In this document: in pieces, positions 44,238 through 63,554 of the stretch | How positions within the stretch are numbered: the stretch's first letter is position 1 | Layout: the number at the start of each line of letters is the position of its first letter | NCBI GenBank assembly: GCA_045593265.1 | Contig: JAZNWH010000054.1 | Coordinates: 28,832-92,831, forward strand | Direction of reading: 5' to 3' | DNA: 64,000 bases | From: Clostridia bacterium | GTDB taxonomy: Bacteria; Bacillota; Clostridia; RGIG6154 | The notes under the pieces: generated by a model | The model's input: the letters and a program-made list of their open reading frames with translations, nothing else | Database searches by the model: none | Told to the model about the DNA's origin: nothing | Made by a program: the position numbers and the translations under genes

Positions 44238-44922
44238 CCCTTTCTGAAATTAATTCCCGCTTATACTTATAATAAGTATTACGACTAACCCCAACTATTG
44301 CCATTAAATCCACATCACTCAAGGAACCATCGAAGTCTTTAGAAAGTTCCTGAATCTTGCTTTTAGCAACAACAGATTTTTTAACATTTAACTTTCTACC
44401 CTTTACGCCACCAACTTGTTTGCCCTCTAACTTTGCAGTTACCAGACCCTCTGCTGTTCTTTTATGCAAATCTTCCACCTCTTTGGCAGCCTGCTCGAAG
44501 GCTATCCTTATTTGTTTTTCTGCAAGTTTACGGAGATATAGATTTACCCCTTCCAAGATATAATCTACATCTTCTCCTGTAAGAGCCACCTGACGCTGAA
44601 GTGCTTCTTTATAAACATCGGTGTTAATGTGGGGCTCTTTTAAAAACACCAAAGAAATACCCTTATCATATAACTCAAAATACAAGGCAACACCCTCATC
44701 CGCATTTCTGCTCATACGACTAACAGAATCAAAAATAATTCTATCCCCAGACTTGACCACCCTTAACAACTTGTCTAATTCCTTGCGACCATAGAACTTG
44801 GTGCCTGTAAATACTTCCTGAAAAATTATTGCATCAGGGGAAACTGCCAGAATATTGCGAATTTGCCTGTCAATAGATTGCCTTTTAGTACTGATTCTTG
44901 CATAACCATAGTCTTTGCCCAT
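44230..44922 (-). CDS. Serine recombinase (resolvase/invertase family) with a C-terminal HTH
   Basis: YGYARISTKRQSIDRQ carries the catalytic Ser...IFDSVSRMSRN...C-terminal VGVSRNTYYKYKR. Confidence 0.85.
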   Translation of the reverse strand: MGKDYGYARISTKRQSIDRQIRNILAVSPDAIIFQEVFTGTKFYGRKELDKLLRVVKSGDRIIFDSVSRMSRNADEGVALYFELYDKGISLVFLKEPHINTDVYKEALQRQVALTGEDVDYILEGVNLYLRKLAEKQIRIAFEQAAKEVEDLHKRTAEGLVTAKLEGKQVGGVKGRKLNVKKSVVAKSKIQELSKDFDGSLSDVDLMAIVGVSRNTYYKYKRELISERVG

Positions 44923-44962
44923 ATAGAACACCTCCTAAAGTATTAAAACTAACGAACGCTAA

Positions 44963-46223: not shown

Positions 46224-49200
46224 TTATACCAAGCCGAAATACTTTTCAAAGAATTTCAACATTTTATCAATAATACCCTGTTTTTTCTCGGCTCTGTTAC
46301 CACCGCCGAAGCGAGATACAGGAGGCATGAGTTTATCAATATCTGTTCCTGTAGTTTTAAGAAGCCCATCCCTGAAAGCATTATCCATAAAGCGCCTGGT
46401 CTCATCGGCCTTTAACTTTTCACCCGCAATCAACTCATCGAGGTCAGACTCCTTTTGTTCCTTAACAAACTTGAGCCAATCACGACTCACATCAGTATCG
46501 GCATTTATTGACGCAATAAAGTTATCAATAAGCTCTTTTTTAGACCTGAGTGCAAGACTTGACTTAATTGCTTTATCAATAGAAGCAAGAATTTCCTTAT
46601 CCTTACAATTAGATTTATGATATTTAGCCACAAGCATCAGTATATAATCAATATTAACCTCTACCTGCTTAACAAGTTCCATTTCAAAGACAATATCATC
46701 TTTTATACTATCCTTTTCGCCTGTAGGCTTAAACTCATTCCTTATATCAAGATATGTACCCGTATAATCCTGAAAATCAATAGGTAATAATATTTCATTA
46801 CCCGCAAACTTATCAAAGGATGAAAGTATATTCCTGAGTCTTAATATATTACCAAATAAAATTACAAAATCCTTTTTATTTTGCTCGCCTATAATTTGTT
46901 CGCTTAAAGGATATTTCTGCAGGAGTTGTGCTATACGCTCCTCATAGCCAATCTGATGCTTACCATTATCATCCTCATAGCCATAATAGTAATCCTCATA
47001 GGATTTTAAAAGCACAATACCTGTGGCATCCTTATCGCCGAACAGGGATATAGCATCTTCAGTTTCCTGTTGTAAATCTCTGAAGCACACAATATTACCA
47101 AAGGTTTTAACCGAGTTTAATATTCTGTTTGTTCTTGAGAATGCCTGAATCAACCCATGTTGCTTTAAGTTCTTATCTACCCATAAGGTATTAAGAGTAG
47201 TAGCATCAAAGCCTGTCAAGAACATATTAACAACAATCAATAGGTCAATTTCTCTCTTTTTAACCTTATCGGATAAGTCCTTATAATAATCCTGAAAGCC
47301 TTTATCGGAAGAATCAAAGTTAGTCTTAAAGGTCTTGTTGTAGTCCGCAATTACATCATCAAGAAAATCACGAGAGCTCTTATCTAATTTTTCTGTGTCA
47401 AAGCTCTCATCCTCCAAGATTCCATCGGCATTATCGGATTCATTAGGAGCAAAGGAATATATTGTAGCAAAGGTAAAATCCTTATGCATTTCCTCAACCT
47501 GCTTTTTAAACTCTAAATAATACTTTTTAGCCATTGGGATAGAACTTACTGCAAACATAGAGTTAAAGCCATTTACCCTCTGACCTTTAAGGCTATAATA
47601 AGAATTACGCTTTGTCTTTTGGTCAAAATGCTCTAATATATATTTTACAATTTCCTCAACTCTTTCGTGAGAACCCAGAACCTCCTCTGTGTTTATAGCA
47701 TGAACCTGCTTATCTGTCATACCTTCTTTTGCCGCAACAGTATTAACATAGTCAATCCTGAATGGTAGAACATTGCCATCGTTTATAGCATCAACAATAG
47801 TATAGGTGTGAAGTTTATCACCAAACGCCTGCTCGGTAGTACGCATATTAGGATTGCCACTATTTGAAGAGTTTACAGCAAAAATAGGAGTTCCTGTAAA
47901 CCCAAATATATGATAATTTTTAAACTCTTTTACAATACGAGCATGCATATCACCAAACTGACTCCTGTGACATTCATCAAATACCAATACCATGTGCTTT
48001 TGGTAAACAGGATGCCCTGAATTTCTTTTTACAAACTCGTCTAATTTCTGAATAGTAGTAACAATAATTTTAGAAGAGTCATCCTCTAACTGCTTCTGCA
48101 GCACTTTTGTGCTTTTATTACCATTTGCAGCACCTTTTTCAAATCTATCATATTCTTTTATAGTCTGATAGTCTAAATCCTTTCTGTCTACCACAAAAAG
48201 CACCTTATCAACATAGTCAAGAGAGGTAGCAAGTTGGGCAGTCTTAAAAGAAGTTAAAGTTTTACCCGAGCCAGTTGTATGCCAGATATACCCACCAGCA
48301 GACAACTCACCAGTCTTTTTATAATTTGTAGAAACTTCAATCCTGTTTAAAATACGTTCAGTTGCAACAATCTGATATGGTCTCATTACAAGCAGAAGCT
48401 CCTCGCTTGTAAATATGCAGTATTTAGTTAAGATATTAAGGATAGTATGCTTTGCAAAGAAAGTCTTTGTAAAGTCCACAAGGTCAGCAATTACCTTATT
48501 ATTACCATCCGCCCAGAACGAAGTAAACTCAAAGCTGTTGCTTGTCTTTTTACTGCTTGACTTTGAATTTTTGTTACCTTCCTTTATTGCACTATCCCTT
48601 GTGGTATTAGAATAGTATTTTGTATGTGTACCATTAGAGATAACAAAGATTTGTACATATTCATACAAACCGCAGCCAGCCCAGAAACTTTCCCTTTGAT
48701 ACCTATTTATCTGGTTAAAAGCCTCTTTTAAAGCAACGCCTCTGCGCTTTAACTCAATATGAACCAGAGGCAACCCATTAACCAGAACAGTTACATCATA
48801 CCTATTATCATGAGTTCCGCCATCTTCAACATACTGATTCAGTACCTGAAGGCTATTATTGTGAATATTCTTTTTATCAATCAGGTATATGTTTTTAGTG
48901 CTACCGTCATCACGCTTTAATACCTGAATAAAGTCCTCTTGTATTCTACGAGTTTTCTCTACAATGCCCTCATTACTATTTGAGATATTAGAGTTATAAA
49001 AGGACTCCCATTCTTTATCGCTGAACTTATAATTGTTTAACTTTTCAAGTTGTCCCCTTAAATTGCTAACCATATCATCGGCCTTATGTATTTGTATATA
49101 CTCATAGCCTTGCTCGGACAGCATTTTTATAAAAGCAGCCTCCAAAGCAGCCTCGCTCTGATAAGCATCAGAACGCTGCTTCTGTGGCTCATATTCAGTA

Positions 49201-49247
49201 ACAACAGTACTTTCAGAAGTCGAAAGAATTATATTATATTGGCTCAT
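46224..49247 (-). CDS. hsdR: Type I restriction enzyme, R subunit
   Basis: 1007 aa. Has an N-terminal nuclease region (VLVNGLPLVHIELKRRG) and SF2 helicase motifs (HTTGSGKT, VFDECHRSQ, FTGTP, QAFSRTNR). Confidence 0.95.
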   Translation of the reverse strand: MSQYNIILSTSESTVVTEYEPQKQRSDAYQSEAALEAAFIKMLSEQGYEYIQIHKADDMVSNLRGQLEKLNNYKFSDKEWESFYNSNISNSNEGIVEKTRRIQEDFIQVLKRDDGSTKNIYLIDKKNIHNNSLQVLNQYVEDGGTHDNRYDVTVLVNGLPLVHIELKRRGVALKEAFNQINRYQRESFWAGCGLYEYVQIFVISNGTHTKYYSNTTRDSAIKEGNKNSKSSSKKTSNSFEFTSFWADGNNKVIADLVDFTKTFFAKHTILNILTKYCIFTSEELLLVMRPYQIVATERILNRIEVSTNYKKTGELSAGGYIWHTTGSGKTLTSFKTAQLATSLDYVDKVLFVVDRKDLDYQTIKEYDRFEKGAANGNKSTKVLQKQLEDDSSKIIVTTIQKLDEFVKRNSGHPVYQKHMVLVFDECHRSQFGDMHARIVKEFKNYHIFGFTGTPIFAVNSSNSGNPNMRTTEQAFGDKLHTYTIVDAINDGNVLPFRIDYVNTVAAKEGMTDKQVHAINTEEVLGSHERVEEIVKYILEHFDQKTKRNSYYSLKGQRVNGFNSMFAVSSIPMAKKYYLEFKKQVEEMHKDFTFATIYSFAPNESDNADGILEDESFDTEKLDKSSRDFLDDVIADYNKTFKTNFDSSDKGFQDYYKDLSDKVKKREIDLLIVVNMFLTGFDATTLNTLWVDKNLKQHGLIQAFSRTNRILNSVKTFGNIVCFRDLQQETEDAISLFGDKDATGIVLLKSYEDYYYGYEDDNGKHQIGYEERIAQLLQKYPLSEQIIGEQNKKDFVILFGNILRLRNILSSFDKFAGNEILLPIDFQDYTGTYLDIRNEFKPTGEKDSIKDDIVFEMELVKQVEVNIDYILMLVAKYHKSNCKDKEILASIDKAIKSSLALRSKKELIDNFIASINADTDVSRDWLKFVKEQKESDLDELIAGEKLKADETRRFMDNAFRDGLLKTTGTDIDKLMPPVSRFGGGNRAEKKQGIIDKMLKFFEKYFGLV

Positions 49248-50503
49248 ACACCTTGTGCCTCCAATCTTTTCACTTTGCTATCTAAATGTGCTTTCAAATC
49301 TTCGCTTTTGGTTATTGGGATAATTTCTTTATCTGTTATGAATTTGAGGATTAGTTCTGCACAATAAGCTTTTGCATATGCCAAGTCTCCTTTTAGAACA
49401 AAGACTCTGCTACCGTGTGATATTTCTGAACGTTGATTATAAGTAATCTTAAAATCTCTTTTTGTTGCTATATAAGTTTCTAAACTGTCAGAAATCATAG
49501 CCGACAAATAGTTTGTTATCATTTGGGTTAAGTCTTTTTCGTCGTATTCTATTAGAGCTTCAATAGCGGTTATATACATTACGAATTTTTGAGCATCAGA
49601 ACGTTCGTGGATAATTCTCCCATAAGTTGTGAATGCATACCTGATTCGTTCATTGACCTCATTTTTTTCTGTTGAGGATAATCTCTCGATTAACGACTTA
49701 AAAATCGGGGAAACTGTATGAACTAAATTGTATGCATCAATATTCTCGTGCCTGTAAATATCATTTTCAAACTTTTCATAATTTTGCATGTGTGACGAAA
49801 TAAAACAACGCCCAAACACAGGGTGAAAATCGTCAAATACGCAAACCGAGTAAGCGTTCCACTTGTTAATGTCAAAGAAAAATTGACAAATACCTTGAAA
49901 TACCTCAAATTTATATCTTGCCAACTCATATGCTTTTTTAACATCTGAAGTTTCAATAGCAGTAGAAATCCAAACAGGATGTTCTTTGAATTGTTGATGA
50001 TACTCCAAAAAAGTTTCTTCTGTTTCATAGCCTGTTAGTTTAAAAATATGTTCTTTATGCAGATTATAATCGTAAAGAGTAAAACAACCTATTTCCAGAG
50101 GAATATCTGTATTAACATCTACGCCATAAAGAGTGAAGAAAACATACTGTCTATCAACTTTAGCCATGTTAAGTTTATTATAAAACTTATCAAAGTTTTT
50201 TACTGTTACGCTCTCGTTCATAACTTTTAACCTTATCATAAAATGATGAAGTTTATCTGCAACATAATCAATAGAGAACTTTTCTTCGATACTCCCAGAA
50301 GAATATATCTGCCAAAAAGTATTATGATAAGAATCTGCGTAATCTTTAGATAAATGAAATGAGTAGTGTTTATTTATACGCTCGAAATAGTGAGAAAAAT
50401 GCACGCAACTATCTGGGGAACGCTTCGAGTCCACACATCCCTCATATATTTCTGCATATGAAATTAATTCATTCAGTTTCTCTATTACTTCGGTTTTTTT
50501 CAT
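49244..50503 (-). CDS. Unknown 419-aa protein with a C-terminal R-x4-H (HEPN-like) motif, embedded in the type I R-M operon
   Basis: 4-nt overlaps with both the hsdS stop and the hsdR start. The C-terminus reads ...FVMYITAIEALIE...KITYNQRSEISHGSRVF.... No P-loop is present. Confidence 0.45.
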   Translation of the reverse strand: MKKTEVIEKLNELISYAEIYEGCVDSKRSPDSCVHFSHYFERINKHYSFHLSKDYADSYHNTFWQIYSSGSIEEKFSIDYVADKLHHFMIRLKVMNESVTVKNFDKFYNKLNMAKVDRQYVFFTLYGVDVNTDIPLEIGCFTLYDYNLHKEHIFKLTGYETEETFLEYHQQFKEHPVWISTAIETSDVKKAYELARYKFEVFQGICQFFFDINKWNAYSVCVFDDFHPVFGRCFISSHMQNYEKFENDIYRHENIDAYNLVHTVSPIFKSLIERLSSTEKNEVNERIRYAFTTYGRIIHERSDAQKFVMYITAIEALIEYDEKDLTQMITNYLSAMISDSLETYIATKRDFKITYNQRSEISHGSRVFVLKGDLAYAKAYCAELILKFITDKEIIPITKSEDLKAHLDSKVKRLEAQGV

Positions 50504-51759
50504 GTGGTTAATTCCTTAAAAGATAATAGTTTGTCGCGATAGTATTCGTATTGCTTCTGTCTGGCTTCAATCTCTGCAGGTAAGCCTTCTGAAATATCAT
50601 TACAAAGCATATCAAATTTTTTTAGTGCATCAATTATACGTTGTTGTTCTTTCTTTTCTATTAAAGGCAACTTGAATTTTCTGATTTTTTCCATAGGTAT
50701 ATTTTGCATAGAAGAAGCCTGCAACAATTTAGAAATCTGCTCAGCTTTAAACTTATCTGTCAGAAAATAGTACATCATATATTCAGGAATGAATCTATCA
50801 TCTGTAATGCGAATAAGGGCAACATTAGGAGCTAAATAGTATTTGTCATCTTCGTTTATGAGAGCAACTTGTCCAACAGTTCCTACATAAGTAAAGAGCA
50901 TATCGCCGATACGTAGTTTACTTCTTGTAATCATATCAAGGTCGCTTCCGTCTATGTATTTGACATCATCTAATACAAGATGCCCATTTTTTACATTTAA
51001 CCCTCTTAATGCTATTATTTCACCTACATCAGAATACTTAACATATTTTGTAAACTCAAAGCCAGCCAACTTAGTAACAGTAGCTACTTCACCAAGCTCA
51101 ATCCAATTAACATTAGTATCTTTAACGCAAGGGAATAGGCTTGAAGAATAATACTCATATTGTGTTTTACGAGCTGTAAGCTCTGCTGTAAGCTCTGCTG
51201 TAAGCTCTGTGAAATTGTCAAGTATCTTGACAATTTCACCCTGTACCTCAATAGGAGGTATAGGAATAATGACTTTTCTCATTTCTGACATTGGAACACT
51301 TTTAACAGTTCCACCAGCAGCCTTCCTTAAGTAGCTTTCCTTAATTTCCTTTGAAGTAAGTACATACATTAGAAACTTTGACAATATTTTATTAACGTCA
51401 GGCTTAATAACATATACTCCTTCTTTTATATTCCAATTATAAGGGTCATTTTCTATCAAAGCAACTTCGCCTATTGTTCCAGTTCCTGAAAATAAAACAT
51501 CACCAATTTCAAGGTTGGAACGATTATTACACAGTTTCAATGCCTCATCATTTATTTTGTCAGTTTTCTCTGAAAAAACGATACTCATATTGTGTATTTC
51601 ACGTATTGTTACATAGTAATTTTGAGCATCCTCTGTATTTAATTTGAAGAATTGTCTTGGATTTAGTCCTGTATTAAGTGACAATATTACATCATTCAGT
51701 GGACTATACTCTACACCATTAGGGCACAGTTCTTTTATAAGTTTGTCTAATCTGCTCAT
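50500..51759 (-). CDS. hsdS: Type I R-M specificity subunit
   Basis: 419 aa. Two target-recognition domains are separated by a central helix (FTELTAELTAELTARKTQYEYY). The C-terminal conserved helix is RQKQYEYYRDKLL. Confidence 0.9.
   Translation of the reverse strand: MSRLDKLIKELCPNGVEYSPLNDVILSLNTGLNPRQFFKLNTEDAQNYYVTIREIHNMSIVFSEKTDKINDEALKLCNNRSNLEIGDVLFSGTGTIGEVALIENDPYNWNIKEGVYVIKPDVNKILSKFLMYVLTSKEIKESYLRKAAGGTVKSVPMSEMRKVIIPIPPIEVQGEIVKILDNFTELTAELTAELTARKTQYEYYSSSLFPCVKDTNVNWIELGEVATVTKLAGFEFTKYVKYSDVGEIIALRGLNVKNGHLVLDDVKYIDGSDLDMITRSKLRIGDMLFTYVGTVGQVALINEDDKYYLAPNVALIRITDDRFIPEYMMYYFLTDKFKAEQISKLLQASSMQNIPMEKIRKFKLPLIEKKEQQRIIDALKKFDMLCNDISEGLPAEIEARQKQYEYYRDKLLSFKELTT
51173..51208. 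repeat. Three perfect tandem copies of a 12-bp unit in the hsdS central conserved region
   Basis: gctgtaagctct x3, encoding the (T)ELTA-ELTA-ELTA / TAEL repeat. Confidence 0.9.
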
Positions 51760-53321
51760 TACTGCACCTCAATTTCTGCTATTATATCATCAATAGCGGC
51801 TCTCAAGGTCGCTTGACGAGCGACAATTTCTTTTATTTCTGCATTTAATTTTACTATATCAACCTTTTCTCTTGTGTCCTTCTGCTCAACATAGGTAGAT
51901 ACAGACAGATTATAATCCTGTTCTGCAATTTCATCAAAAGCAGCAAGATGAGAAAAGTGTTCTACTTCTTCACGACTTTCAAATACCCCTACAATTTTAG
52001 AGATATTTTCATCGGTAAGCATATTATTATTCGTAACCTTTACAAACTCATTAGAAGCATCTATAAATAAGGTTTTATTATCTGCCTTCGACTTCTTCAA
52101 TACCATAATACAGGTAGCAATAGAAGTACCAAAGAAAAGGTTTGAAGGTAACTGAATAACACAATCAACATAGTTATTATCTACCAGATACTGCCTTATC
52201 TTTTTCTCCGCACCGCCTCTGTACATAATACCAGGGAAGCAAACAATAGATGCTGTTCCATTGGTGGCAAGCCAAGCAAGTGAGTGCATAATGAATGCCA
52301 AGTCCGCTTTAGATTTCGGAGCCAGAACACCCGCAGGAGAAAATCGGGGGTCATTGATTAAAACAGGGTTATCATCGCCCTCCCATTTGATAGAGTAAGG
52401 AGGATTTGATACGATAACCTCGAATGGCTCATCGTCCCAATGCTGAGGGCTTATAAGAGTATCCTCGTTTGCTATATTAAATTTATCATAAGCAATATCA
52501 TGCAAGAACATATTTATTCTGCAAAGATTATATGTAGTAGGATTTATTTCCTGACCATAATACCCCTGACGAACATTATCCTTACCTAATATAGTTTCTG
52601 CTTTAAGAAGCAGAGAGCCAGAGCCACACGCAGGGTCATAAACCTTATTTACTTCTGTTTTACCCACTACAGCAAGACGAGTCAAAAGCTCGGACACTTC
52701 CTGCGGAGTGAAGAACTCACCGCCAGACTTACCAGCATTTGAGGCATACATACCCATTAAATACTCATAAGCATCACCAAATACATCAATAGAATGGTCT
52801 TTATAATCCCCAAGTTCCATATTGCCCACACCATCAAGGAGTTTTACAAGTTTATCATTTCTCTTTGCAACTGTGGCGCCCAATTTATTACTATTAACAT
52901 CATAGTCATCAAACAGGCCTTTGAAGTCATCTTCACTTATACTGCCTTGCGCCGATTCTTCTATATGCCTGAACACCTTTTCTAAAGTTTCATTAAGATT
53001 ATCATCCGAAGGAGCCTTCGTTCTTACATTACAGAATAGTTCAGAGGGAAGAATGAAAAATCCCTTTTCTTCTACAAGGCTATCCCTTGCCGATTCCGCA
53101 TCACTATCAGGCATCTTTGCATAATCAAAATCAGCATTACCCGCAGCCTGCTCACCTTCGTTAATATAGTTAGTCAAATTTTCTGATATATAACGATAGA
53201 ACATCGTACCCAGAACATACTGTTTAAAATCCCAACCATCAACAGAGCCACGCAAGTCATCTGCAATAGCCCATATTGCTTTATGTAATTCTTCTCTTTG
53301 TTTATTATTTATTACAGCCAT
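51759..53321 (-). CDS. hsdM: Type I R-M N6-adenine DNA methyltransferase subunit
   Basis: 520 aa. Has the HsdM N-domain ([14 protein letters not shown]), the SAM motif (DPACGSGS) and the catalytic motif (VSNPPYS). Confidence 0.95.
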
Positions 53322-53830: not shown

Positions 53831-55000
53831 TTAAGGATGACAATTCCCGCAACTGTCATACCCGCTATTGACCGCATCCGCTCTGGAACTGAAATACACC
53901 CTGTTTTTTTCTATAGGCAAAGAGTGACAAGTAGGCTTGTGGAACTTCTTGGAATTCTTATTGCCAATATATGTTCCCGTGCTTTCTGTTCCTTTAAATA
54001 CATTTTCATGCTCATATGATGTTGGGTTAGTTTCTATATTTTCATTTCTTGCAGTAGTAACAGTAATATCCTTGCCATTGCTTTCAACTATAATATCACC
54101 CTGCAGGTCTGTTCTATAAACCTTCGCACCCGCATCTCTGAATCTGCTCAAAGCATCCTCGTCAGGATGCCCATATTGATTACCCTTACCAACAGAAATA
54201 ACCACATATTCAGGCATGACCTCTCTTAAGAATTGATATGAGGATGAAGTATCGGAGCCATGATGACCTGCTTTTAAAACAGTAGCAGACAAATCATACC
54301 CCTGACTCAAGATGTCGTGTTCTTCTGAATACTCTGCATCGCCTGTAAACAGGAATGATGTATCTCCGCACACCACCTTAGTTATGATTGAGGTATTGTT
54401 CAAATCATCTTCATTTTCATAGGTGGGGCAATACAACTCTACAGAGCAACTACCCAGATTAAAAGAAGTACCAGAATCAGGATGGGCTATACTTTTACCC
54501 GCTGAAGCCACCTTGCTTTTAAAAGATTGATAAAACTTTGCATCATTTTCTGTTCTTGGCGCATATATTACCCCTACTGAAGCCTTTTGTAAAGCACCAG
54601 ACAAGCCTCCCATATGGTCTTCGTGAGCATGAGTTCCCACAATATAGTCAAGATGAGAAATCCCCAGCCTATCGAGATAGGAATATATCCTACTACTATC
54701 CTCAACATTACCGCCATCAATAAGCATAGCACTATCACCGCTAATCAGGAGTGCAGCATCCGCCTGACCTACATCAATAAAGTGTACTTTAAGACCATGT
54801 TGTATTACCTGTGTGGTGGTATCTTCTGACTCTTTCTCTGACTCAGTACCCGATTCAACAGGTTTCTGCGACTCTGTTACCTCTGTTTGTGTTCTTTTGG
54901 TAATAGTGGTGGTATCAGTTGAGGTCTGAGAGCCGCAAGCACTCAAAATACCCACAACCATTAGTAAAGACAGCAATACACCTAAAAATTTTCTATTCAT
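53831..55000 (-). CDS. Secreted lipoprotein: MBL-fold hydrolase (ComEC C-domain-like) with a C-terminal Ada-like Cys4 zinc module
   Basis: Has a lipobox (LSAC), an MBL domain (VHFIDVGQADAALL...GTHAHEDHMGG...GHHGS) and a tail reading KFHKPTCHSLP...GYDSCGNCHP. Confidence 0.7.
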   Translation of the reverse strand: MNRKFLGVLLSLLMVVGILSACGSQTSTDTTTITKRTQTEVTESQKPVESGTESEKESEDTTTQVIQHGLKVHFIDVGQADAALLISGDSAMLIDGGNVEDSSRIYSYLDRLGISHLDYIVGTHAHEDHMGGLSGALQKASVGVIYAPRTENDAKFYQSFKSKVASAGKSIAHPDSGTSFNLGSCSVELYCPTYENEDDLNNTSIITKVVCGDTSFLFTGDAEYSEEHDILSQGYDLSATVLKAGHHGSDTSSSYQFLREVMPEYVVISVGKGNQYGHPDEDALSRFRDAGAKVYRTDLQGDIIVESNGKDITVTTARNENIETNPTSYEHENVFKGTESTGTYIGNKNSKKFHKPTCHSLPIEKNRVYFSSRADAVNSGYDSCGNCHP

Positions 55001-55431: not shown

Positions 55432-55929
55432 CCACAAAGGCAGACAGGTACAACTGTTTGTCTTTATTTTTACCCATTTATAGCCTATAACATTTCCAAA
55501 GTTCAACATCAACAGTTCAACATCTTCAAGTTCTATATTTTATATCCAGAACAAAATCAAAAATCCAAGTTCACTTTATTATATTTTTTTCAGGTTCAGG
55601 TTTTTCATAATTTATGATGGCATTATCAACTATTTAATCAAGATATGCACACATATAAAAATTATCCGATAAAATTGAAAAGTTCATCAGGACACATTAT
55701 TTCAACCTCACAACATAGACCTGATTAATGCGACAAAAAACATAGCAAAAATGACACCGTTCTCCAATAGTTTAAGTATATAATGAATAACACCCCAAAT
55801 AGCACATCGCCACCAAAACAAGCAATTTGAAGCAAAACACAAATATTTTTAGGAGTTAAGAAAATAAGTTCCTATAAACCTTAACATATAAATTCTTAAC
55901 AACCAAATTTTTAAACCCATTCTGAGAGA

Positions 55930-55961
55930 AAACCACTACCGCAAAAGAGCAGTAGTGGTTT
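55930..55961 (-). terminator. Terminator of the amidoligase operon
   Basis: Minus strand: aaaccactac-tgctcttttgcg-gtagtggttt plus tctctc, about 50 nt after the stop at 56011. Confidence 0.6.
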
Positions 55962-56010
55962 CCCTTTGTGAGATGATTAAAATGAAAAGTTTTTATATGA
56001 ATAAGCCTAC

Positions 56011-56583
56011 TCAATCAACATAATTAAACATTTTTTTGAGTTTAAGGCTTAGGTCCATATCTGAATCCGAAGGCGATTGTAAAAGATGCCCTACAAACGC
56101 CAACTTATTTTTATCCAAAGACTTTAACCTTCTTTCAAAAGTAGGATAACTATACGTCTTTAAAAATTTTATTTCAGGTACACAATCCTGAATATCAAAT
56201 CGCCTGTACTGGTAAGAAGGAATTGCATTATCTGCTTGTGAAAACAAGAGGTCTTCTGGATAGGATAGAGCAAAATCTATTATTTCTGCAGCAAGTTCAT
56301 CACCATTTCTGATTCGGTCTAAAATTGTGCTTCCGAGCAATTCCTTTAGTTTACAGTTTGCATACCAAATTGAAGTGGTAAGCGGCTCGGTATCAGTATC
56401 CCCGAGTTGTTCTACTGTAGATTTATTATCGCAATCACATTCGATATAAGAAACTACCCGCTTTATAGTATCTGCATGACATAGATAGGAACACTCCTTA
56501 ACAAACTTCTTTAATTTTAAAATGAGTTCATTACCCGATTCATCCCGCATAATTTGCTTAATCAGATTACTCATGCTCATCAT
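56011..56583 (-). CDS. Hypothetical protein, fifth gene of the amidoligase operon
   Basis: 190 aa. Overlaps the upstream gene by 17 nt. No motif recognised. Confidence 0.45.
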   Translation of the reverse strand: MMSMSNLIKQIMRDESGNELILKLKKFVKECSYLCHADTIKRVVSYIECDCDNKSTVEQLGDTDTEPLTTSIWYANCKLKELLGSTILDRIRNGDELAAEIIDFALSYPEDLLFSQADNAIPSYQYRRFDIQDCVPEIKFLKTYSYPTFERRLKSLDKNKLAFVGHLLQSPSDSDMDLSLKLKKMFNYVD

Positions 56584-57076
56584 CCTCTCCGAAAAGTTTA
56601 TTTACAAGTTCACAATTTTTAAAGGAATAGCCAACAGCATCATCTGTAACAACGAAGTTTTCACCTAGAACATTAACTGTATTCCATACCTTACCATCTT
56701 CTTTGCTTATATTTTGCAAACGAATTGAAAAAGCCATTTTACCACCTTTCATAGACCTGTCAGTTATAACTGTATATACTGGACTATGAGAAGTAAAACG
56801 AATATCAGATAATACTATGTTAAAATAAGTTCCCGTATCACTATATAACAGCGGTAATTGCTTTAACTCTTCCTCTAAATCATTAACATCTATATAAAAA
56901 GGGACACACAATGAGGCCTTTAGTCTACGACTACGAGCATCAATATATAAAAAGTACTTATCTAAATACTCACTAAGGGGCATTTCTGCATACATAGAAG
57001 GACACTCAAGACCATACAGTATGACAGACATTAACCGATTAAATAATTCCTTCGCCAATTCTTCTTTCAGCCACAT
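56567..57076 (-). CDS. Hypothetical protein, fourth gene of the operon
   Basis: The start at MWLKEELAKE has the RBS aaaggggg. It lies 1 nt after the upstream stop. No motif recognised. Confidence 0.45.
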   Translation of the reverse strand: MWLKEELAKELFNRLMSVILYGLECPSMYAEMPLSEYLDKYFLYIDARSRRLKASLCVPFYIDVNDLEEELKQLPLLYSDTGTYFNIVLSDIRFTSHSPVYTVITDRSMKGGKMAFSIRLQNISKEDGKVWNTVNVLGENFVVTDDAVGYSFKNCELVNKLFGEDDEHE

Positions 57077-57077
57077 A

Positions 57078-57938
57078 TTATTTACCCCCTTTGCACTCTT
57101 TAATAGTAAAAACATCAAGAGAGTTGAGCATTACAATTTCTTTTGATTCCACATCCCTTAAAGGAAAGACGCAAGCATCCAACACATTATATTCCATAGC
57201 CTTATCATAGTCTGAGCCATACTTAAGTGTTCCTTTAATAGTTTTCCTGATTCCGTTAATCCTGCAATCAATCTCACAAACCCCAGACTTAAGCCTTTTC
57301 ATTATACTTTCTGTTCTTTTCCAGGCTAAGGTATAAGGTAGTACAGTAGTCTTTTTACTGTTGGGGTGGAGCTTACAGGAGGTAAGGTGGAACTTACCGC
57401 CAGATTTATCCTTGTCCTCAAACTTAATTACTTCAAATGCGCCATCTTCAAGCTCTTTTTTTGTAATTATACGCTTTGACTCTATGGTATTCATACGATT
57501 ATCGCTAATTCTGTTCATAGAGCAAAAGCGAAGCATGTAATTTAAGCAGCATGGGTTTTTAGTGGCAAGATAAGAAGTTCTGCCACGCCCATCCTTCGCC
57601 TCTACCGATACATACGCAAGACCTGTCAAGAGATACAATGTTGCAAGTAAACGCTTATTATTACGCCAAAAATTCTGTTCTAATGAGCCACCTGTTTCAA
57701 TGATATCCGATTGAATTGCTTGAGCAATTTTATCCCTTGCCTCTCTGTCAGAGAAGGCGGTATTGACATCCTCAAAGCCATACAGCCCTTTTTCAATATT
57801 GCCTGTTATATCAACCATTAAGCCCTTTTCCTGCTGATACTTATTGATAAGTCTGTTGAGGCTATTGCTAACCATAAGAGGCATTTCCGCAAGTTCAACG
57901 CCACAGGTTTTCGCATCTTTTATTTCAAAAATTGCCAT
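57078..57938 (-). CDS. Hypothetical protein, third gene of the operon
   Basis: About 286 aa. The start at MAIFEIKDAK has the RBS gaagggg. No motif recognised. Confidence 0.45.
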   Translation of the reverse strand: MAIFEIKDAKTCGVELAEMPLMVSNSLNRLINKYQQEKGLMVDITGNIEKGLYGFEDVNTAFSDREARDKIAQAIQSDIIETGGSLEQNFWRNNKRLLATLYLLTGLAYVSVEAKDGRGRTSYLATKNPCCLNYMLRFCSMNRISDNRMNTIESKRIITKKELEDGAFEVIKFEDKDKSGGKFHLTSCKLHPNSKKTTVLPYTLAWKRTESIMKRLKSGVCEIDCRINGIRKTIKGTLKYGSDYDKAMEYNVLDACVFPLRDVESKEIVMLNSLDVFTIKECKGGK

Positions 57939-58017
57939 ATAAAACACACCCCTTCAATCATCTACTCAATATATGAAAAGGTGTGCTTTTGAATAGTATT
58001 CATCTGAAAAATTAATG

Positions 58018-58533
58018 TTATCTGCGCCAAAATTCCTCGTATCCGCGTTTAGGCTTTGGCATTCTTGTGATTGTTTTTTGCAAAGCCTCCTGAAGATACC
58101 TTGCATCAAGTCCGCAATCACGATACCCACGCAGACAAACATCATAGTAATGACCCGAAGGCCTGCCAAGTTCGCCATTATACTTGTTCATTACATAAAC
58201 AAATAACTCTTTACAGTCCGATAAATCGCCCTGTGAAATAATAAGCTCTTTGGGATTCACCTTTGCTATCCTATAGTGAGTTGGGTAGCCCTCATATCTG
58301 TCCAGAGCCATCTTGCAACGCTCGGTAATTTTGAAAATACCCACAGGAACACGACTATTTGCACATTTTTCAATAGTGCAGAAACAGTTACCATCATGCC
58401 CCCGAAAGAGAAGTTCATACCCCTTTAGAAAGCCTGTTGCTATAAGTTGAGCATTCGGACAACGCATCTGAAGTTGTCGACTATTCAAGTTAGAACCATA
58501 GCCTACGTAATAATAAATCTTTCGTGCATTCAT
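58018..58533 (-). CDS. Gamma-glutamylcyclotransferase (AIG2/GGCT-like) family protein
   Basis: KIYYYVGYGSNLNSRQLQMRCPNAQLIATGFLKGYELLF is the YGSN...RCP signature. The start at MNARK has the RBS aaggagg. Confidence 0.7.
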   Translation of the reverse strand: MNARKIYYYVGYGSNLNSRQLQMRCPNAQLIATGFLKGYELLFRGHDGNCFCTIEKCANSRVPVGIFKITERCKMALDRYEGYPTHYRIAKVNPKELIISQGDLSDCKELFVYVMNKYNGELGRPSGHYYDVCLRGYRDCGLDARYLQEALQKTITRMPKPKRGYEEFWRR

Positions 58534-58549
58534 AATAAAATATTCCTCC

Positions 58550-59515
58550 TTATCTTGAAATCCTGTCACCTCTGCGCCAAGCCTTCGATTGTGTTCCAAA
58601 CCTATCTAACAGGTGTATTCTCATCGTTTTGAACTCATCGCCTATACAATTCATCTTCAACAGCCAAATTCTGAAGCGGTATGCCTCGCTGCAGCCTTCC
58701 TCTAAAACAACAGGTTTATAACTGCTTTTTGTCAATGTAGAACAGTAGGTAACCAGTAGAAGTACAAACTGTATATAGGCCTTTATTTTACCAGCATGAA
58801 GTGTCGAACAGAAGCATCGAAACTCGGCTGTTCCATAATAGAATCTTGAATCAGGAACAAGCCCACGAGTCATATTGACTATGTAGTATCGGCTATGAGG
58901 ATAACGAATATAGCGCTCTCCAGAATTGCCAATAGTGCTATACCACACATCTGCAATTTGACTTAAAGTTTTAGCCTTTTTCTTTTTCAAAGTTTCCACC
59001 AAATTAGTGGGTATCCTTTGGCAGTATCTATATCTGCTATTATACGCAGTAGGAACACCCAAAGCCTTATAAATCAAATCTTGTTTACTATGAATTTGAT
59101 TTAAAATATGAACAATTGCACTCGGATATCGACTTACATCACAGTGGATATGTATTCCGCAAGACTCAGATTCAAAAAAGCCTGCTTTTCGCAATTTGCG
59201 AACAATTTCCTGAAACATCGGAATATCAGCAGCCACGAGTGGTGGTCCGCAAAGTTCCACCTTGAAAGTCTCATCTGCTGGCACCACCCGAGAGTTAAGT
59301 TTGCGAAGTGGTGTTATTGAAGCATCGGACATTACAGTCCACTTTCTGCCATTTGAATCTGTAACAGAATATTTATCATATCCCGTGCCTTCATATACAT
59401 AATTTGTGCCAAAGAATTCTGCGAGTACCTCTGCAGCACGCTTTCTGGATTGACCAGTCATTTCTAACTCCAATCCCCATGTAAGACTATCATATATTTC
59501 ACGATTTAAAGCCAT
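58550..59515 (-). CDS. Putative amidoligase (Amidoligase_2, GS-like fold)
   Basis: 321 aa. TWGLELEMTG (G-x-E-x-E)...CGIHIHCD...the pattern of the PF12224-type amidoligases found in phages and plasmids. Confidence 0.6.
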   Translation of the reverse strand: MALNREIYDSLTWGLELEMTGQSRKRAAEVLAEFFGTNYVYEGTGYDKYSVTDSNGRKWTVMSDASITPLRKLNSRVVPADETFKVELCGPPLVAADIPMFQEIVRKLRKAGFFESESCGIHIHCDVSRYPSAIVHILNQIHSKQDLIYKALGVPTAYNSRYRYCQRIPTNLVETLKKKKAKTLSQIADVWYSTIGNSGERYIRYPHSRYYIVNMTRGLVPDSRFYYGTAEFRCFCSTLHAGKIKAYIQFVLLLVTYCSTLTKSSYKPVVLEEGCSEAYRFRIWLLKMNCIGDEFKTMRIHLLDRFGTQSKAWRRGDRISR

Positions 59516-60000
59516 ATCAACATCTCCTTACTATGTTCTTGAAAGAACATAAAAGAAGATGTGATTTATGGGCTTTACATGGGTTAAAAGTGTGTAGCAA
59601 CTCTTTTAGAAACAGAGTATGTTGAAGTATAACGCGTTCTCTCTGAGTTTTCAAGTCTTATGCGAGGTTTTCTCCGCAACTCACAAAAAAGAAGCATCTA
59701 TGTTAAAAATCTGTGAGGTTTTGACCGCGCCCTAAGTTTATTTTGTATTTCTTTTTTTCTGAAAATAGGGGTATTTAACACCCTAAATCCAAAAAGAAAA
59801 TGAAAAGTAAAAATCTGCCTGATAATTTTATAAAATTTTAAATGGCATATTGGGGACAACCAAGAAACACAACCCTAATTTTTGAAGCCTTGTAACACCC
59901 TTGTGACAAATTTCTGACATCTACCAGCATGGAATACCTTTTGGGGATTTTAAGCCCTTGTGGCGAATTTTGAGCATAATATGCTATTAATGTTTTAGAA

Positions 60001-60237
60001 TCAAAATCTGTTACGACAAATAACATTGAATTGTTCATGGGTTATGTAATACAAAGATTTTGTATTATTTTGAAAATCAAACATTTCAAAAGTTGCAACA
60101 CCATCTTTAAAAAATTTGAAAAACTCATACAATCTTATAAGTATTGTATCATCGGAAACAAAACGAGCATATCTATCTTTGTTCATTTCCTCAATATTTT
60201 TAGCACCCTGATTTATTGCATCATTTAAAGTATACAT
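60001..60237 (-). CDS. Hypothetical small protein
   Basis: 78 aa with the RBS aggaggat upstream of its ATG. No motif recognised. Confidence 0.4.
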   Translation of the reverse strand: MYTLNDAINQGAKNIEEMNKDRYARFVSDDTILIRLYEFFKFFKDGVATFEMFDFQNNTKSLYYITHEQFNVICRNRF

Positions 60238-60370
60238 TATTAAATCCTCCTAATAATTTCATTTTATATAAACATTTTTGAACTATATTTTTGTGCTTTT
60301 CACACTCTTGTGGCGAATGTATTTAAAATTCGCCATAAGAGTAGTGTGGGCTATGTGGGGATGTGGGGAA

Positions 60371-62782
60371 TTATCCCTCAACACAGACCTGCTTCAAAAA
60401 GTCAGATATACTTTGACCTACACATTTTGCTAGAAAAACAGGTACTGCATTTCCAACTTGTCTATAAACCGCATGAGTACCGCCTATAAACTTAAAATCG
60501 TCAGGAAATGTTTGTATTCTCTTAATCTCATTTTCATTTAGCGGTCTATTCTCTACTGGATGACAGATTGTGTTAGGTTCAGAAGCGGCAATAGTACAAC
60601 ATACTTTATTGAAATGAAGTCTTCTATATCTTCTGAATCTATTGACCGATATTGCGAACTCACCATCTTCATCAAGCAACGACTTATCAAAATTTTTTAA
60701 ATCTGCCGCCTTGCCAGGTTTAGCACTTGCAAGTACATGTTCAACATTAGCGCTATATTTTATATATCTTCCGTCTGGTAAACCCTTTATTGCCTTTTTC
60801 AAAGTTATATGATTCGCCTTATCAAGAATAGGCTCTGGAAATTTATATTCAACCCCCATTCTTTTGGCCTTGTCTTGTATATCCTGTCTTATTGCAACCA
60901 GAAATACACGAAGCCTATTTTGAGGAACACCATAATCAGCAGCATTAAGTACCTTAACAGTAGAATATAACTCATCATTTTCTTGGAAAGCAGCAAAATA
61001 ACCGAGTTTTCGTATTTCTGCTAACATGTATTCAATTACGTCACTCTCTTCCGCACTAACAAGTGCTTGTACATTTTCGATGAATAAAACCTTTGGCTTG
61101 AGGCACTCTGCGATTTTTAAGTAGTCATCAAAAAGCATCCCACTATCACAATTCATGTGTTCTCTCTTGCCTAAGTTACTATAGGAAGTACAAGGAATTC
61201 CACCACATAAAACATCCAGCCCTGTATCCTCCTGCTCAAGTAATATCTTATACAATGTACTTTTATCCATTTCAGGATATTGTTCCAATAATGCCTCTAC
61301 TTTTGGCTTAAGAACACTAGCCACTATATCTTCTTTAATATCATCTTTGGTGATGTCACCCAGAATAATATTTTCTTTACCAAAGTTTTGTATTTGTGTT
61401 TCTACAGCCTGTTTATTAAACTCAACTGAGGCATAAGATTTAAAGCCTGAAATATGCATACCCAAAGATAGTCCACCTGCCCCAGAACAGACCTCGGCAA
61501 AACTAAATTTACTATCTGATATACCCACAACTTTTTCGATAGCCCATTCCAATCTTAACTGTCGCATGCTATAAGAAAGATTATTTGACTTTGGAGTTAA
61601 ATCTTTCTCTTGTTCCAAGAAATACCTATCCAATTGAGCCGCTGTCATACCGTCTGTGAGTTTATAATTTTGAGTACAATCATATTCCTTATAACCAACT
61701 TGAGTGTCCGCTTCAAACAATTCCGTTAACTTCGAAGTCTCAAAGTTACACCAGATATATTCCTGAGCCACTTTGCCTAGTTGCGCAACCGAGTAACCAC
61801 TTTCTGTTAATACTGAAGCAGAAAATGAAAGTACATTGCCAATACCAGGAAGTATTTTTTCTAACTTCTTCATATTTTCCTGATTAACAGGAGAATCAAT
61901 CTTACTTTTTGTAATATCGTAATCGGACTTACGCCTGTCATGTATTATACTACCCGTACCATAACAATGCCAATTATCCTCTACAAACAGGCATTTATAA
62001 GGAATTAAACCTGCTTGATGCATACATATCATAACCTTACACTTACAATCCTTGCAAAGTGCTATCAACTCTTTGTGTTTTCTATAAGACCAACTGTTCT
62101 TATAGCAGTCTGTATTAAAGTATGGTGGGTCAATGACTATCATCATCTGTTCATCGTCCTGATATTCCTTGACGATGTCGAAACAATCTTCATTTCTTAC
62201 TTCCATATACTTTAAACACGCGTGTGATTCCATCAGGTTTTCCATATATGACTTTCTGAATAAAAGTTTGTCCAAGAAGTTATATGAAACCTTGTTGTTT
62301 TTACCTACATATTTGTAAAAAATCGTGTTTCTGTTATTCTGATAAGAACCCCAGATTACAATTATTGCTAAAGCTCCAATCAGTACAGGGTCCAACCTAG
62401 AAAGTTTATCAGGCCCACATACAACATATTTTTTTGCAACATCAAATAGCGCCTTGAACTTTTCTTCGTCAGTAGCATCAAAATCCATTGCCAATACTGA
62501 CTTAATAATATGAGTAACCACAGTATTAAGAATCAGTATATTATCTTGTTTCTGTAGCAATTTCATTAAAGTTGCCAACCCAAACTCCCATTCGTTATAA
62601 CCCATAAAATCAAACTTCATGTGGTTTAGGGCGAAGGACAGCTTTCCGCCGCCCCCGCACACATCATAGAACTTTGATACATTGCCTGCTTCCACCTGTT
62701 CATATATAATATCTCTAATGGTTTCAGCCAGCCTTGTTTTACCTCCTAAAGAGGGAATACCCTTTACCTTCTTACTGCTCAT
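60371..62782 (-). CDS. Fused DNA methyltransferase: N-terminal N6-adenine (D12/Dam-like, DPPY) plus C-terminal C5-cytosine (Dcm-type)
   Basis: The N half has SLGGKTRLA and VIDPPYFNTDCY. The C half has FAEVCSGAGGLSLG (motif I), GGIPCTSYS (IV), LFIENV (VI), QNRLRVFLVA (VIII) and YRQVGNAVPV (X). The start at MSSKKV has the RBS gaaggagg. Confidence 0.85.
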   Translation of the reverse strand: MSSKKVKGIPSLGGKTRLAETIRDIIYEQVEAGNVSKFYDVCGGGGKLSFALNHMKFDFMGYNEWEFGLATLMKLLQKQDNILILNTVVTHIIKSVLAMDFDATDEEKFKALFDVAKKYVVCGPDKLSRLDPVLIGALAIIVIWGSYQNNRNTIFYKYVGKNNKVSYNFLDKLLFRKSYMENLMESHACLKYMEVRNEDCFDIVKEYQDDEQMMIVIDPPYFNTDCYKNSWSYRKHKELIALCKDCKCKVMICMHQAGLIPYKCLFVEDNWHCYGTGSIIHDRRKSDYDITKSKIDSPVNQENMKKLEKILPGIGNVLSFSASVLTESGYSVAQLGKVAQEYIWCNFETSKLTELFEADTQVGYKEYDCTQNYKLTDGMTAAQLDRYFLEQEKDLTPKSNNLSYSMRQLRLEWAIEKVVGISDSKFSFAEVCSGAGGLSLGMHISGFKSYASVEFNKQAVETQIQNFGKENIILGDITKDDIKEDIVASVLKPKVEALLEQYPEMDKSTLYKILLEQEDTGLDVLCGGIPCTSYSNLGKREHMNCDSGMLFDDYLKIAECLKPKVLFIENVQALVSAEESDVIEYMLAEIRKLGYFAAFQENDELYSTVKVLNAADYGVPQNRLRVFLVAIRQDIQDKAKRMGVEYKFPEPILDKANHITLKKAIKGLPDGRYIKYSANVEHVLASAKPGKAADLKNFDKSLLDEDGEFAISVNRFRRYRRLHFNKVCCTIAASEPNTICHPVENRPLNENEIKRIQTFPDDFKFIGGTHAVYRQVGNAVPVFLAKCVGQSISDFLKQVCVEG

Positions 62783-63554
62783 TGTCAGTACCTCCTTCGA
62801 TTTCAACATTAAACTCATAAGGCTCAACATTTATTATGTAGCACCTTGTGTCTTTGGCTTCAGAACTAAGAGTAATATCCCAACCCCTGTTGTAACTTGT
62901 ACTTAAGAAAAGTACATTTCTTGCCGCCAATTCTTTAACTACACTACCGAGTTCTACACCGTCATTCTTATCCCACCCCATAAGGTTTTTAAGTTCGCTG
63001 TATTTAACAGCCAGTACAGTTTTACCATACAAGTGATTGTAATACTTGTTATCAAGCCATATTCCTAAAGTCTCTTTAGTTGCATTGTTTTTGGACATCC
63101 AAGTGAATTCAGAACATTTATCCTCAAGGCTTTCAAACAATCTGTTGTGATACCTATCTATATAATTATCGGAAAGAAGAGGATTGAGAATTCTGTCAAT
63201 ACTCTCACCCTTTTCGGTGTCCAAAACAATTACACGATTTTCAGGGTCTGTATCTTCATCATGAAGAATATAGGTTTGAACGATAAGTTCTAACTCAGTT
63301 ACAATAGTACTATTTATTACACCACACGCCTCAAGTCTGCATAAAATATCTTTACTGATTTTACCCATACTCATTTTACTTTTAAGAAAGCTCACAGACT
63401 GTTTGTCACCCTTTTTCGAGCTGAACTCGATTGCATAAACTTGACCATTACATTCAGAGTATCTACCACGATACACTTTAACGTCCCACCAGTCATTAAA
63501 ATAGGGGTCGTGATTACCTACTCTTGCCTCAATTACATCTGAATAATTTTTCAT
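62772..63554 (-). CDS. Hypothetical protein upstream of, and overlapping, the fused methyltransferase gene
   Basis: 260 aa. Its stop overlaps the methyltransferase start by 11 nt. No motif recognised. Confidence 0.4.
   Translation of the reverse strand: MKNYSDVIEARVGNHDPYFNDWWDVKVYRGRYSECNGQVYAIEFSSKKGDKQSVSFLKSKMSMGKISKDILCRLEACGVINSTIVTELELIVQTYILHDEDTDPENRVIVLDTEKGESIDRILNPLLSDNYIDRYHNRLFESLEDKCSEFTWMSKNNATKETLGIWLDNKYYNHLYGKTVLAVKYSELKNLMGWDKNDGVELGSVVKELAARNVLFLSTSYNRGWDITLSSEAKDTRCYIINVEPYEFNVEIEGGTDNEQ

Follow-up and report, generated by a model that had tools for sequence, protein, structure and literature searches.

A 64,000-nucleotide (nt) stretch of the genome of a Clostridia bacterium (GenBank assembly GCA_045593265.1, contig JAZNWH010000054.1, positions 28,832 to 92,831; hereafter the window) carries five stacked genes, here called g1 to g5, which on sequence evidence form one conserved operon with a single promoter, leader and terminator. 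The first two encode an Amidoligase_2 enzyme and a protein of the gamma-glutamylcyclotransferase (GGCT) fold, and the other three encode orphan proteins that occur almost exclusively with this pair. In our preferred reading, to which we assign a probability of about 40%, the operon is a backbone module of rare, small integrative elements of gut Clostridia, and its enzymes might act together with g3, g4 and g5 as a reversible writer and eraser of a gamma-glutamyl-type group. Phages were already known to carry the enzyme pair; the three linked partners, the exchange of a cassette within the operon and the predicted gated leader are new.

The operon, its enzymes and its leader

All five open reading frames (ORFs) lie on the minus strand, and the operon region with its signals spans 55932-59654. 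The amidoligase of 321 amino acids (aa) is encoded by g1 (58550-59515), and the GGCT/AIG2 (GGACT-like) protein, 171 aa counted from the ATG, by g2 (58018-58533). They are followed by g3 (57078-57938), encoding a basic orphan protein of 286 aa (isoelectric point 8.9), by g4 (56567-57076), a variable slot encoding an acidic orphan protein of 169 aa (isoelectric point 4.8), and by g5 (56011-56583), encoding an acidic, all-alpha orphan protein of 187-190 aa. The genes are separated by gaps of 16 nt (g1/g2), 79 nt (g2/g3) and 1 nt (g3/g4), and g4 and g5 overlap by 17 nt. A promoter-like sequence, TTGAAA-17 nt-TATACT, agreeing with the consensus at 10 of 12 positions, was found at 59626-59654, and is followed by the 5' leader of g1 (59516-59619); the non-coding stretch upstream of g1 comprises about 485 nt (59516-60000). 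Past g5, an intrinsic-terminator-like hairpin is predicted at 55932-55956. A Shine-Dalgarno sequence precedes all five starts. The third ATG of g5 (56574, giving 187 aa), its probable start, has the better Shine-Dalgarno spacing and agrees with the 187-aa homologues; if g5 begins there, the g4/g5 overlap is probably 8 nt. Hydrophobic segments were found in none of the five proteins, and the products of g1 and g2, like that of g3, are basic. All five genes are under purifying selection, with ratios of nonsynonymous to synonymous substitution rates (dN/dS) of 0.04-0.14 (g1, 0.09-0.14; g4, 0.08-0.10; g5, 0.04 or lower), and g3, g4 and g5 are therefore considered real genes.

An earlier reading made from the letters alone (the sequence-only reading) had described five stacked minus-strand genes with a 16-nt gap, a 1-nt gap, a 17-nt overlap, one terminator and a long upstream region, and had named the first two as Amidoligase_2 and GGCT. 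The coordinates agreed with this layout, and both names were borne out by Pfam matches above the cut-offs, with the motifs present. The g1 protein matched PF12224 (Amidoligase_2) at E 4.8e-50 and 171.2 bits (cut-off 22), its residues 11-253 aligning with model positions 3-243 of 245, and the PHROGs family phrog_2443 at E 7e-63. Its metal- and ATP-binding motifs GLELE, CGIHIHCD and AEFRCF (E-x-E, H-x-H, E-F-R) are all present, and the same motifs are kept in a partial homologue of 34% identity from the related locus L012. A search of the PDB by sequence detected no solved structure for g1. The g2 protein matched PF06094 (GGACT) at E 1.1e-6 and 29.7 bits (cut-off 22.8) and phrog_2520 at E 8.9e-34, which PHROGs classes as 'moron, auxiliary metabolic gene and host takeover'. 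The motif GYGSNL...RCP can be read in its sequence, and in the alignment with human GGCT (2pn7/2i5t, E 0.001) YGSN fell on YGSNL and LDRYEG on LDEQEG, which includes the catalytic Glu. By these matches g1 is an Amidoligase_2 and g2 a GGCT-fold enzyme with intact catalytic motifs, and both look catalytically competent.

The promoter and leader are far more conserved than the genes that they precede. Over 200 nt (59690-59491) they are 98-100% identical to those of the related loci L004 and L006, whereas the adjoining g1 coding DNA is 61-83% identical, with a synonymous divergence (dS) of 1.3-1.9. L003 and L008, two divergent loci, retain the promoter site in the form TTGAAC-17-TATAGT. A stretch of 113 nt in the leader (59510-59622) was predicted to fold with -31.1 kcal/mol (z -5.5), and a long hairpin of 64 nt (59507-59570), which reaches into the start of g1 and pairs with its Shine-Dalgarno sequence and AUG, with -23.2 kcal/mol (z -6.5). 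The same hairpin occurs in L007 (z -6.5), and an equivalent one is built from different sequence in L003 (z -6.0); L009 has none, and the RNAalifold consensus of the leader was weak, with few sequences. The long upstream region gave no credible match to a riboswitch or other known RNA in Rfam. From these folds we infer that translation of g1 would be held off by default through the predicted hairpin, and the leader may be a cis-regulatory RNA.

A motif, TTCGCCACAAGRG, is present in four copies in 59898-60341 and in six in the window as a whole, a total reached by 0 of 100 shuffles. An inverted pair of it (60305-60341) lies just upstream of a 78-aa ORF (60001-60237), and L004, L007 and L003 partly retain the two direct copies that precede the operon. 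These copies may be operator or iteron sites.

Three orphan partners and their link to the enzymes

The order g1-g2-g3-g4-g5 was found in the related loci L001, L003, L004, L006, L007, L008, L100 and L101, whose g3 proteins are 54-94% identical to that of the window. L009 (g3 identity 36%) carries g1-g2-g3-g5 without g4, L012 (31%) g1-g2-g3, L097 (~23%) g2-g3, and L013 (23%) g2-g3 followed by two unrelated ORFs in the place of g4 and then by a g5 homologue. In total, GGCT lies directly upstream of g3 in 13 distinct gut Clostridia loci, over a range of g3 identity of 23-100%, and this holds for all g3 relatives with a profile E of about 1e-18 or better and readable upstream DNA. The g5 gene was never seen apart from g1-g3. 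In a neighbor-joining tree, calculated without bootstrap, the amidoligases that accompany g3 cluster in a single clade, from which 66 prophage amidoligases are separate. The recurrent order together with the single amidoligase clade argues for one old association of enzymes and partners that has been maintained since, and not for repeated chance insertions.

The last two genes vary as a unit. Nucleotide homology between the window and L006 or L007 ends at the g3/g4 junction (57084) and picks up again past g5 (55962-55747); this terminator flank (55747-55962) is kept in both loci despite a different g4-g5 cassette. Between the window and L001, nucleotide homology covers g4-g5 only. Two types of g4 exist, about 25% identical to one another, and the type of g5 tracks that of g4, with an identity to the window of 82-99% in one set of loci and of 45-50% in the other. 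This pairing of types is independent of the similarity of g1-g3. Judged from these comparisons, g4-g5 is an exchangeable, co-varying cassette, and the co-variation suggests that the two proteins interact. Between the window and L004, dS decreases from 1.26 in g1 to 0.009 in g5, which points to recombination within the operon; the breakpoints found by blastn lie at the g3/g4 junction, not at g2/g3.

The sequence-only reading had been unable to place the three partners, and they remained orphans here: Pfam, PHROGs, NCBIfam and PADLOC gave no match to g3, g4 or g5, no PDB sequence was hit below E 0.1 in profile searches, and a loose-threshold Pfam and PHROGs scan of every member of the partner families revealed no recurring family. 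Matches of g4 to fatty-acid-binding proteins among the PDB profiles, at E 0.13 and above, were taken as chance. That reading had also raised co-occurrence with the amidoligase and GGCT as a point to check, which the conserved synteny in 13 distinct loci bears out. The partners are no ordinary structural or replication proteins of phages.

All three families are rare. Among 5.8 billion proteins, relatives of g3 formed 21 clusters (identity 52% or more), those of g4 23 clusters (70% or more) and those of g5 8 clusters (50% or more), and in a set of 1.84 billion representatives the g3 profile matched just 25 clusters. The 185,579 species genomes scanned contained 4 loci, all in metagenome-assembled genomes of Clostridia, one of them a Ructibacterium sp. 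Two g3-relative loci were found in JGI metagenomes with a narrower profile, as alignments that also held the distant relatives were too divergent to serve as queries. IMG/VR contained no g3 relatives; in tblastn searches g3 and g5 were absent from GenBank phages and g3 from PLSDB plasmids, and with megablast the region 55900-59900 had no match among PLSDB plasmids or GenBank phages.

The AlphaFold2 (AF2) model of g3 (predicted local distance difference test score, pLDDT, 79.8; predicted template modeling score 0.78) is helical in its N-terminal part and then forms beta-barrel units. No significant PDB match to it came from Foldseek; the weak ones were to Tudor/Agenet/Spindlin folds, to Hfq and to the WYL domain of BrxR, the last two at E 0.3-0.8. 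The BFVD matches of g3 include many small phage proteins of the 'WYL domain' and DUF2693 types (E 2e-3 to 1e-1) and span about 80-90 columns of the 286 residues. The Pfam domains WYL and DUF2693 were detected in 0 of 22 family members scanned, and no helix-turn-helix (HTH) domain was recognized in g3. With low certainty, g3 might therefore be modeled as a helical domain joined to SH3/Sm/WYL-like barrels. Just three residues, T126, K127 and E162, are the same in all members of the g3 family. An internal duplication of barrels in g3 was unsupported at the sequence level (hhalign of the halves, E 0.27). The idea of a tag protein with a ubiquitin- or Pup-like C-terminal GG was rejected, as the motif is lost in homologues below about 40% identity and the C-terminal KGGK of g3 is confined to close relatives.

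The enzyme pair in prophages and the host element

An IMG/VR scan with g1 gave 147 loci, 80 of which, with 35-46% identity, were kept and underlie all neighbor counts given here. None of the 80 loci contained g3, g4 or g5. Two contexts prevail among the prophages, and most often the pair stands immediately ahead of the gene for the small terminase subunit (terS). In one, a ParB-methylase and/or Dcm gene is followed by g1-g2 and then by the genes for the small and large terminase subunits and the portal protein (terS-terL-portal); in the other, g1-g2 lies amid small HTH genes at the recombinase end of the prophage. The first context is also found in GenBank phages such as Faecalimonas phage NatCom_26447 (PV036436; Candidatus (Ca.) Heliusvirales), and 47 GenBank phage records match the window amidoligase, mostly from Ca. 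Heliusvirales and other gut phages. An amidoligase and AIG2 pair has been annotated in Tn6164 module B of C. difficile (PMC3485107), and in prophages of C. clostridioforme LM41 the pair has been annotated as host metabolism genes (PMC11318856). The ideas that g5 is a small terminase subunit and that g3 or g4 is related to the neighbors of g1-g2 in prophages were rejected, as hhalign comparisons with 18 clusters gave probabilities of 1% or less.

Proteobacterial LUZ24-like phages carry a set of Amidoligase_2, class II glutamine amidotransferase (GAT-II), ATP-grasp, COOH-NH2 ligase and AIG2 genes (PMC3890496). For the operon in the window, the sequence-only reading had claimed that GAT-II is absent and is replaced by the three orphan genes. 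The absence held, with no GAT-II ORF or Pfam match in the operon and the flanks scanned; the replacement did not, as the pair without GAT-II is the norm in Firmicutes (54 of 80 loci). No GAT-II was noted beside the amidoligase in related Firmicutes loci with clustered or annotated neighbors, either. Because the pair lacks it across related loci, a missing GAT-II is normal in Firmicutes. Judged by gene content, g3-g5 is an addition in one rare element lineage and not a GAT-II substitute.

Ordinary chromosomal DNA fills the first 41 kb of the window. The island starts at a ferritin gene (40595-41131) and extends past the window end; look-ups of exact proteins to extend the element past 64 kb returned short contigs only. 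Ahead of the operon, the island carries a tyrosine integrase (41533-42972), a resolvase (44230-44931), an SseB-like gene, a type I restriction-modification (R-M) system with an extra 419-aa gene (46224-53321, Pfam), a predicted lipoprotein of the metallo-beta-lactamase fold (53831-55000) and an XRE regulator. On its other side, the 78-aa ORF mentioned above separates the operon from a fusion methyltransferase of 819 aa (60371-62830, Pfam), which is followed by a 260-aa ORF. The type I R-M system was thus where it had been described earlier, and the 'giant' methyltransferase of that description proved to be a Dam-like plus Dcm-like fusion, which at 819 aa is no giant protein.

In the relatives, the layout is one or more methyltransferase genes, g1-g5, a variable cargo slot, a gene for a 284-288-aa protein, primase, helicase and integrase/resolvase, and the element of L003 measures about 15 kb in total. 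The cargo slot is filled by a type I R-M system in the window and L004, by an HTH gene, two Dcm genes and a gene for a 380-aa protein in L003, by giant BspA-type leucine-rich repeat/Big_2 surface proteins in L001 (3929-8266) and L008 (13642-18819), and by S-layer homology domain proteins in L007 (12308-15073). The slot is not restricted to defence genes. As its contents differ among loci while g1-g5 stay, the operon appears to behave as a backbone module and the adjacent R-M system as interchangeable cargo. Features of satellite type (integrase, divergent repressor, primase-helicase) were seen in L003, L009, L007 and L095; in the 64-kb window an integrase and a resolvase are present, but no primase-helicase was found. 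Capsid, terminase, relaxase and secretion genes were not seen in the fetched parts of related loci.

Some neighboring genes are noteworthy in themselves. The hsdS gene (50500-51759) is 35% identical to its counterpart in L004, while hsdM, hsdR and the 419-aa gene are 98-99% identical, which looks like a swap of target specificity in an otherwise identical R-M system. The 419-aa ORF (49244-50503), which is 97.6% identical in L004, lies between hsdS and hsdR with overlapping stop and start codons and has no Pfam match; it may be an unrecognized accessory R-M subunit. The lipoprotein at 53831-55000, which is kept in L004, joins its metallo-beta-lactamase fold to a C-terminal Ada-type zinc-binding domain. 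The fusion methyltransferase consists of a D12-class N6-adenine methyltransferase (residues 28-272) and a C5-cytosine methyltransferase (442-809); no nuclease lies nearby, and in L004 and L006 each half matches a gene of its own. In the chromosomal part of the window, the gene at 24037-26310 joins, unusually, an XRE-type HTH to a cupin domain and to an enzyme of the AMP-binding (adenylate-forming) kind.

Proposed function, alternatives and known systems

In our preferred reading, g1 would form, at the cost of ATP, an amide between a target amine and a carboxylate, which is most likely the gamma-carboxyl of glutamate, and g2 would reverse this step by cyclizing the gamma-glutamyl group to 5-oxoproline; the two would then be writer and eraser of a gamma-glutamyl-type amide. 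The proposed steps follow the chemistry of carboxylate-amine ligases related to glutamine synthetase (GS), such as PafA and YbdK, and that of GGCT/GGACT enzymes. Pupylation by PafA and Dop is a precedent for a GS-like ligase accompanied by an eraser, and in butirosin synthesis (BtrJ/BtrG) a gamma-glutamyl group is put on and later taken off by a GGCT-fold enzyme. As g3 is basic and has WYL/SH3-like barrels, it might be a target-binding or ligand-sensing component; it could also be the substrate itself, with the invariant Lys127 as a candidate site. The acidic, co-varying pair g4-g5 would set specificity or regulate. To judge solely by the kind of element, the system might be of use to it when it transfers or when it comes into conflict with host restriction or other mobile elements; a function in defence or counter-defence is unproven. 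A more far-reaching version, which we consider improbable, would make the operon a self-contained signaling or tagging system, in which g1 reversibly gamma-glutamylates g3 or makes a ligand sensed by g3, g4-g5 choose the target, and a satellite-like element senses or manipulates a helper phage or host restriction.

Several results weigh against the writer and eraser reading. In 54 of the 80 IMG/VR prophage loci GGCT adjoins the amidoligase without the partners, and as most prophages thus have the pair alone, catalysis does not require g3-g5. Neither amidoligase nor GGCT nor g5 lies near the g3 relatives that are furthest removed (P0069, P0074 and P0075; profile E 1e-8 to 1e-4). Such enzyme-free g3-like genes (L014, 6983-7882; L095, 8001-8891; L098, 8001-8891) lie downstream of the genes for a 313-332-aa protein, a primase and a DnaB-like helicase, and are followed by a small resolvase, by cargo of which AbiGi is an example, and by a large serine recombinase. 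Their products keep the invariant T-K and E, so that these residues cannot serve solely as a modification site. As g3-like proteins occur without the enzymes, the g3 fold would have a function of its own in this type of element; it seems that the g3 fold marks a backbone gene of the element type and that the association with the two enzymes arose in one branch of the family. The structural models also count on this side: just one of five AF2 models of g3 was confident, the fold matches of g3 fall short of the usual significance level, and the all-alpha model of g5 was poor (pLDDT 60), with meaningless Foldseek matches. Searched with seven proteins including all five of the operon, PADLOC-DB 2.0 gave no model at E up to 0.1. 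Finally, the searched literature holds no biochemical or genetic experiment on the enzyme pair, as the sequence-only reading had supposed.

Some of these points would suit an arrangement of two unrelated adjacent modules, a self-sufficient g1-g2 'moron' cassette and a g3-g5 backbone, for example DNA-binding or regulatory, which are co-transcribed and do no joint work. We regard this as rather unlikely. It would account for the many prophages that hold g1-g2 alone, at two genomic positions, for the distant g3-like proteins found between a primase-helicase module and a small resolvase without amidoligase, GGCT or g5, for the g2/g3 gap being the largest of the operon, and for the internal recombination to which the drop of dS against L004 points. 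It agrees poorly with 13 distinct loci, down to a g3 identity of 23%, that have GGCT immediately before g3, with linked amidoligases in one clade that points to one old association, with a g5 never found without g1-g3, and with blastn breakpoints at g3/g4 instead of g2/g3. Improbable, too, is a module by which a satellite-like element exploits or interferes with a putative helper phage, having borrowed g1-g2 from the pre-terminase region of gut Firmicutes phages. The assignment is based on position alone: the operon sits where phage-inducible islands carry their helper-hijacking operon, and Ca. Heliusvirales and related prophages place g1-g2 directly upstream of terS, terL and portal. The relatives, at about 15 kb with integrase, CI-like repressor, primase and DnaB-like helicase and, as far as the fetched loci show, neither structural nor conjugation genes, would suit a satellite, and a gated, highly conserved promoter and leader would suit helper induction; the window, however, is without the primase-helicase module, g3, g4 and g5 have no profile similarity to terS or other prophage neighbors of g1-g2, and IMG/VR is without g3 relatives.

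A modification of DNA or nucleotides, or anti-restriction, in which an amino-acyl group is placed on bases or on a restriction-related target and, with the orphan methyltransferases, protects the element on entry into a host, appears very improbable to us. The window, L004, L006 and L007 do have orphan methyltransferases immediately upstream, oriented like the operon, and L003 has them downstream, and the prophage pair comes after ParB-methylase and Dcm genes; but this methyltransferase link in prophages is the layout of one phage group and is missing in the integrase-near context, the fetched loci have no genes for reactive bases (hydroxymethylases, kinases, glycosylases), and Pfam scans detected no nucleic-acid-modifying domain in g3-g5. 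Equally hard to credit is an auxiliary metabolic cassette that reshapes host gamma-glutamyl, polyamine or 5-oxoproline pools as a private gamma-glutamyl cycle with no role in conflict. It would leave unexplained the lasting linkage of three orphan, non-enzymatic-looking proteins, the exchangeable co-varying g4-g5 types and the gating of g1 translation by a strongly conserved hairpin, and both reactions together would amount to a futile, ATP-consuming cycle. In its favor, a ligase with a GGCT mirrors the two halves of the gamma-glutamyl cycle; the PHROGs category of the cyclotransferase and the classing of the pair as host metabolism genes in prophage annotations (PMC11318856) favor it as well.

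Amidoligase_2/GGCT pairs are common in gut Firmicutes prophages, and this operon represents a lineage with a long-lasting link to three specific proteins. These make g3-g5 concrete candidates for a substrate, sensor or regulator, within reach of a 3.5-kb construct. An exchangeable g4-g5 cassette and a leader far more conserved than its genes are features of conflict-type or tight regulatory pressure. The family being rare, its general importance hinges on whether it can disclose the chemistry of the commoner two-gene pair.

Iyer, Abhiman, Burroughs and Aravind reportedly predicted in 2009 peptide-tagging systems that add and remove amide-linked groups, a logic that would be the same as proposed here. 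If the signaling or tagging version were true, the amidoligase family of mobile elements to which that prediction refers would gain its first defined partner or substrate. PafA and Dop, a ligase and a deamidase/depupylase, with a carboxylate-amine ligase of GS-like fold, a gamma-glutamyl-lysine isopeptide and a dedicated eraser, serve as a model for g1, g2 and a protein target. The proposed eraser of the window, however, has the GGCT fold and is no PafA paralogue, and the window has no Pup-like small tag protein with a conserved C-terminal GG-Q/E. BtrJ and BtrG likewise act one after the other on the same amine, as a ligase and then a GGCT-fold enzyme releasing 5-oxoproline; BtrJ, in contrast, is an ATP-grasp enzyme acting on carrier-protein-bound intermediates in a large antibiotic cluster, and the window has neither carrier protein nor biosynthetic genes. 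WYL sensors (BrxR, CapW, PafBC) and the small phage WYL/DUF2693 proteins may be compared with the g3 model, which shows SH3/Sm-like barrels and has its best Foldseek matches, weak as they are, to small phage WYL proteins and BrxR. They differ from g3 in that g3 has no Pfam WYL or DUF2693 match and no recognized HTH, and all of its fold matches have E above 1e-3.

Among mobile elements, the LUZ24-like phage clusters share with the window an Amidoligase_2 and a GGCT-fold protein (PMC3890496). They carry GAT-II, ATP-grasp and COOH-NH2 ligase genes, none of which is present in the window, where three orphans are found instead, and they belong to proteobacterial phages, while the window represents an integrative element in a Firmicute host. 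The Firmicutes prophage pairs (Ca. Heliusvirales, Tn6164 module B, LM41) resemble the window in having the same two families in the same order with a short gap. Their amidoligases are 35-46% identical to that of the window, and DNA methyltransferase genes often lie upstream. The window amidoligase falls into a clade separate from theirs, and its element is no recognizable phage; while these prophages carry the pair only, before terS-terL-portal or near the integrase, the window adds g3-g5.

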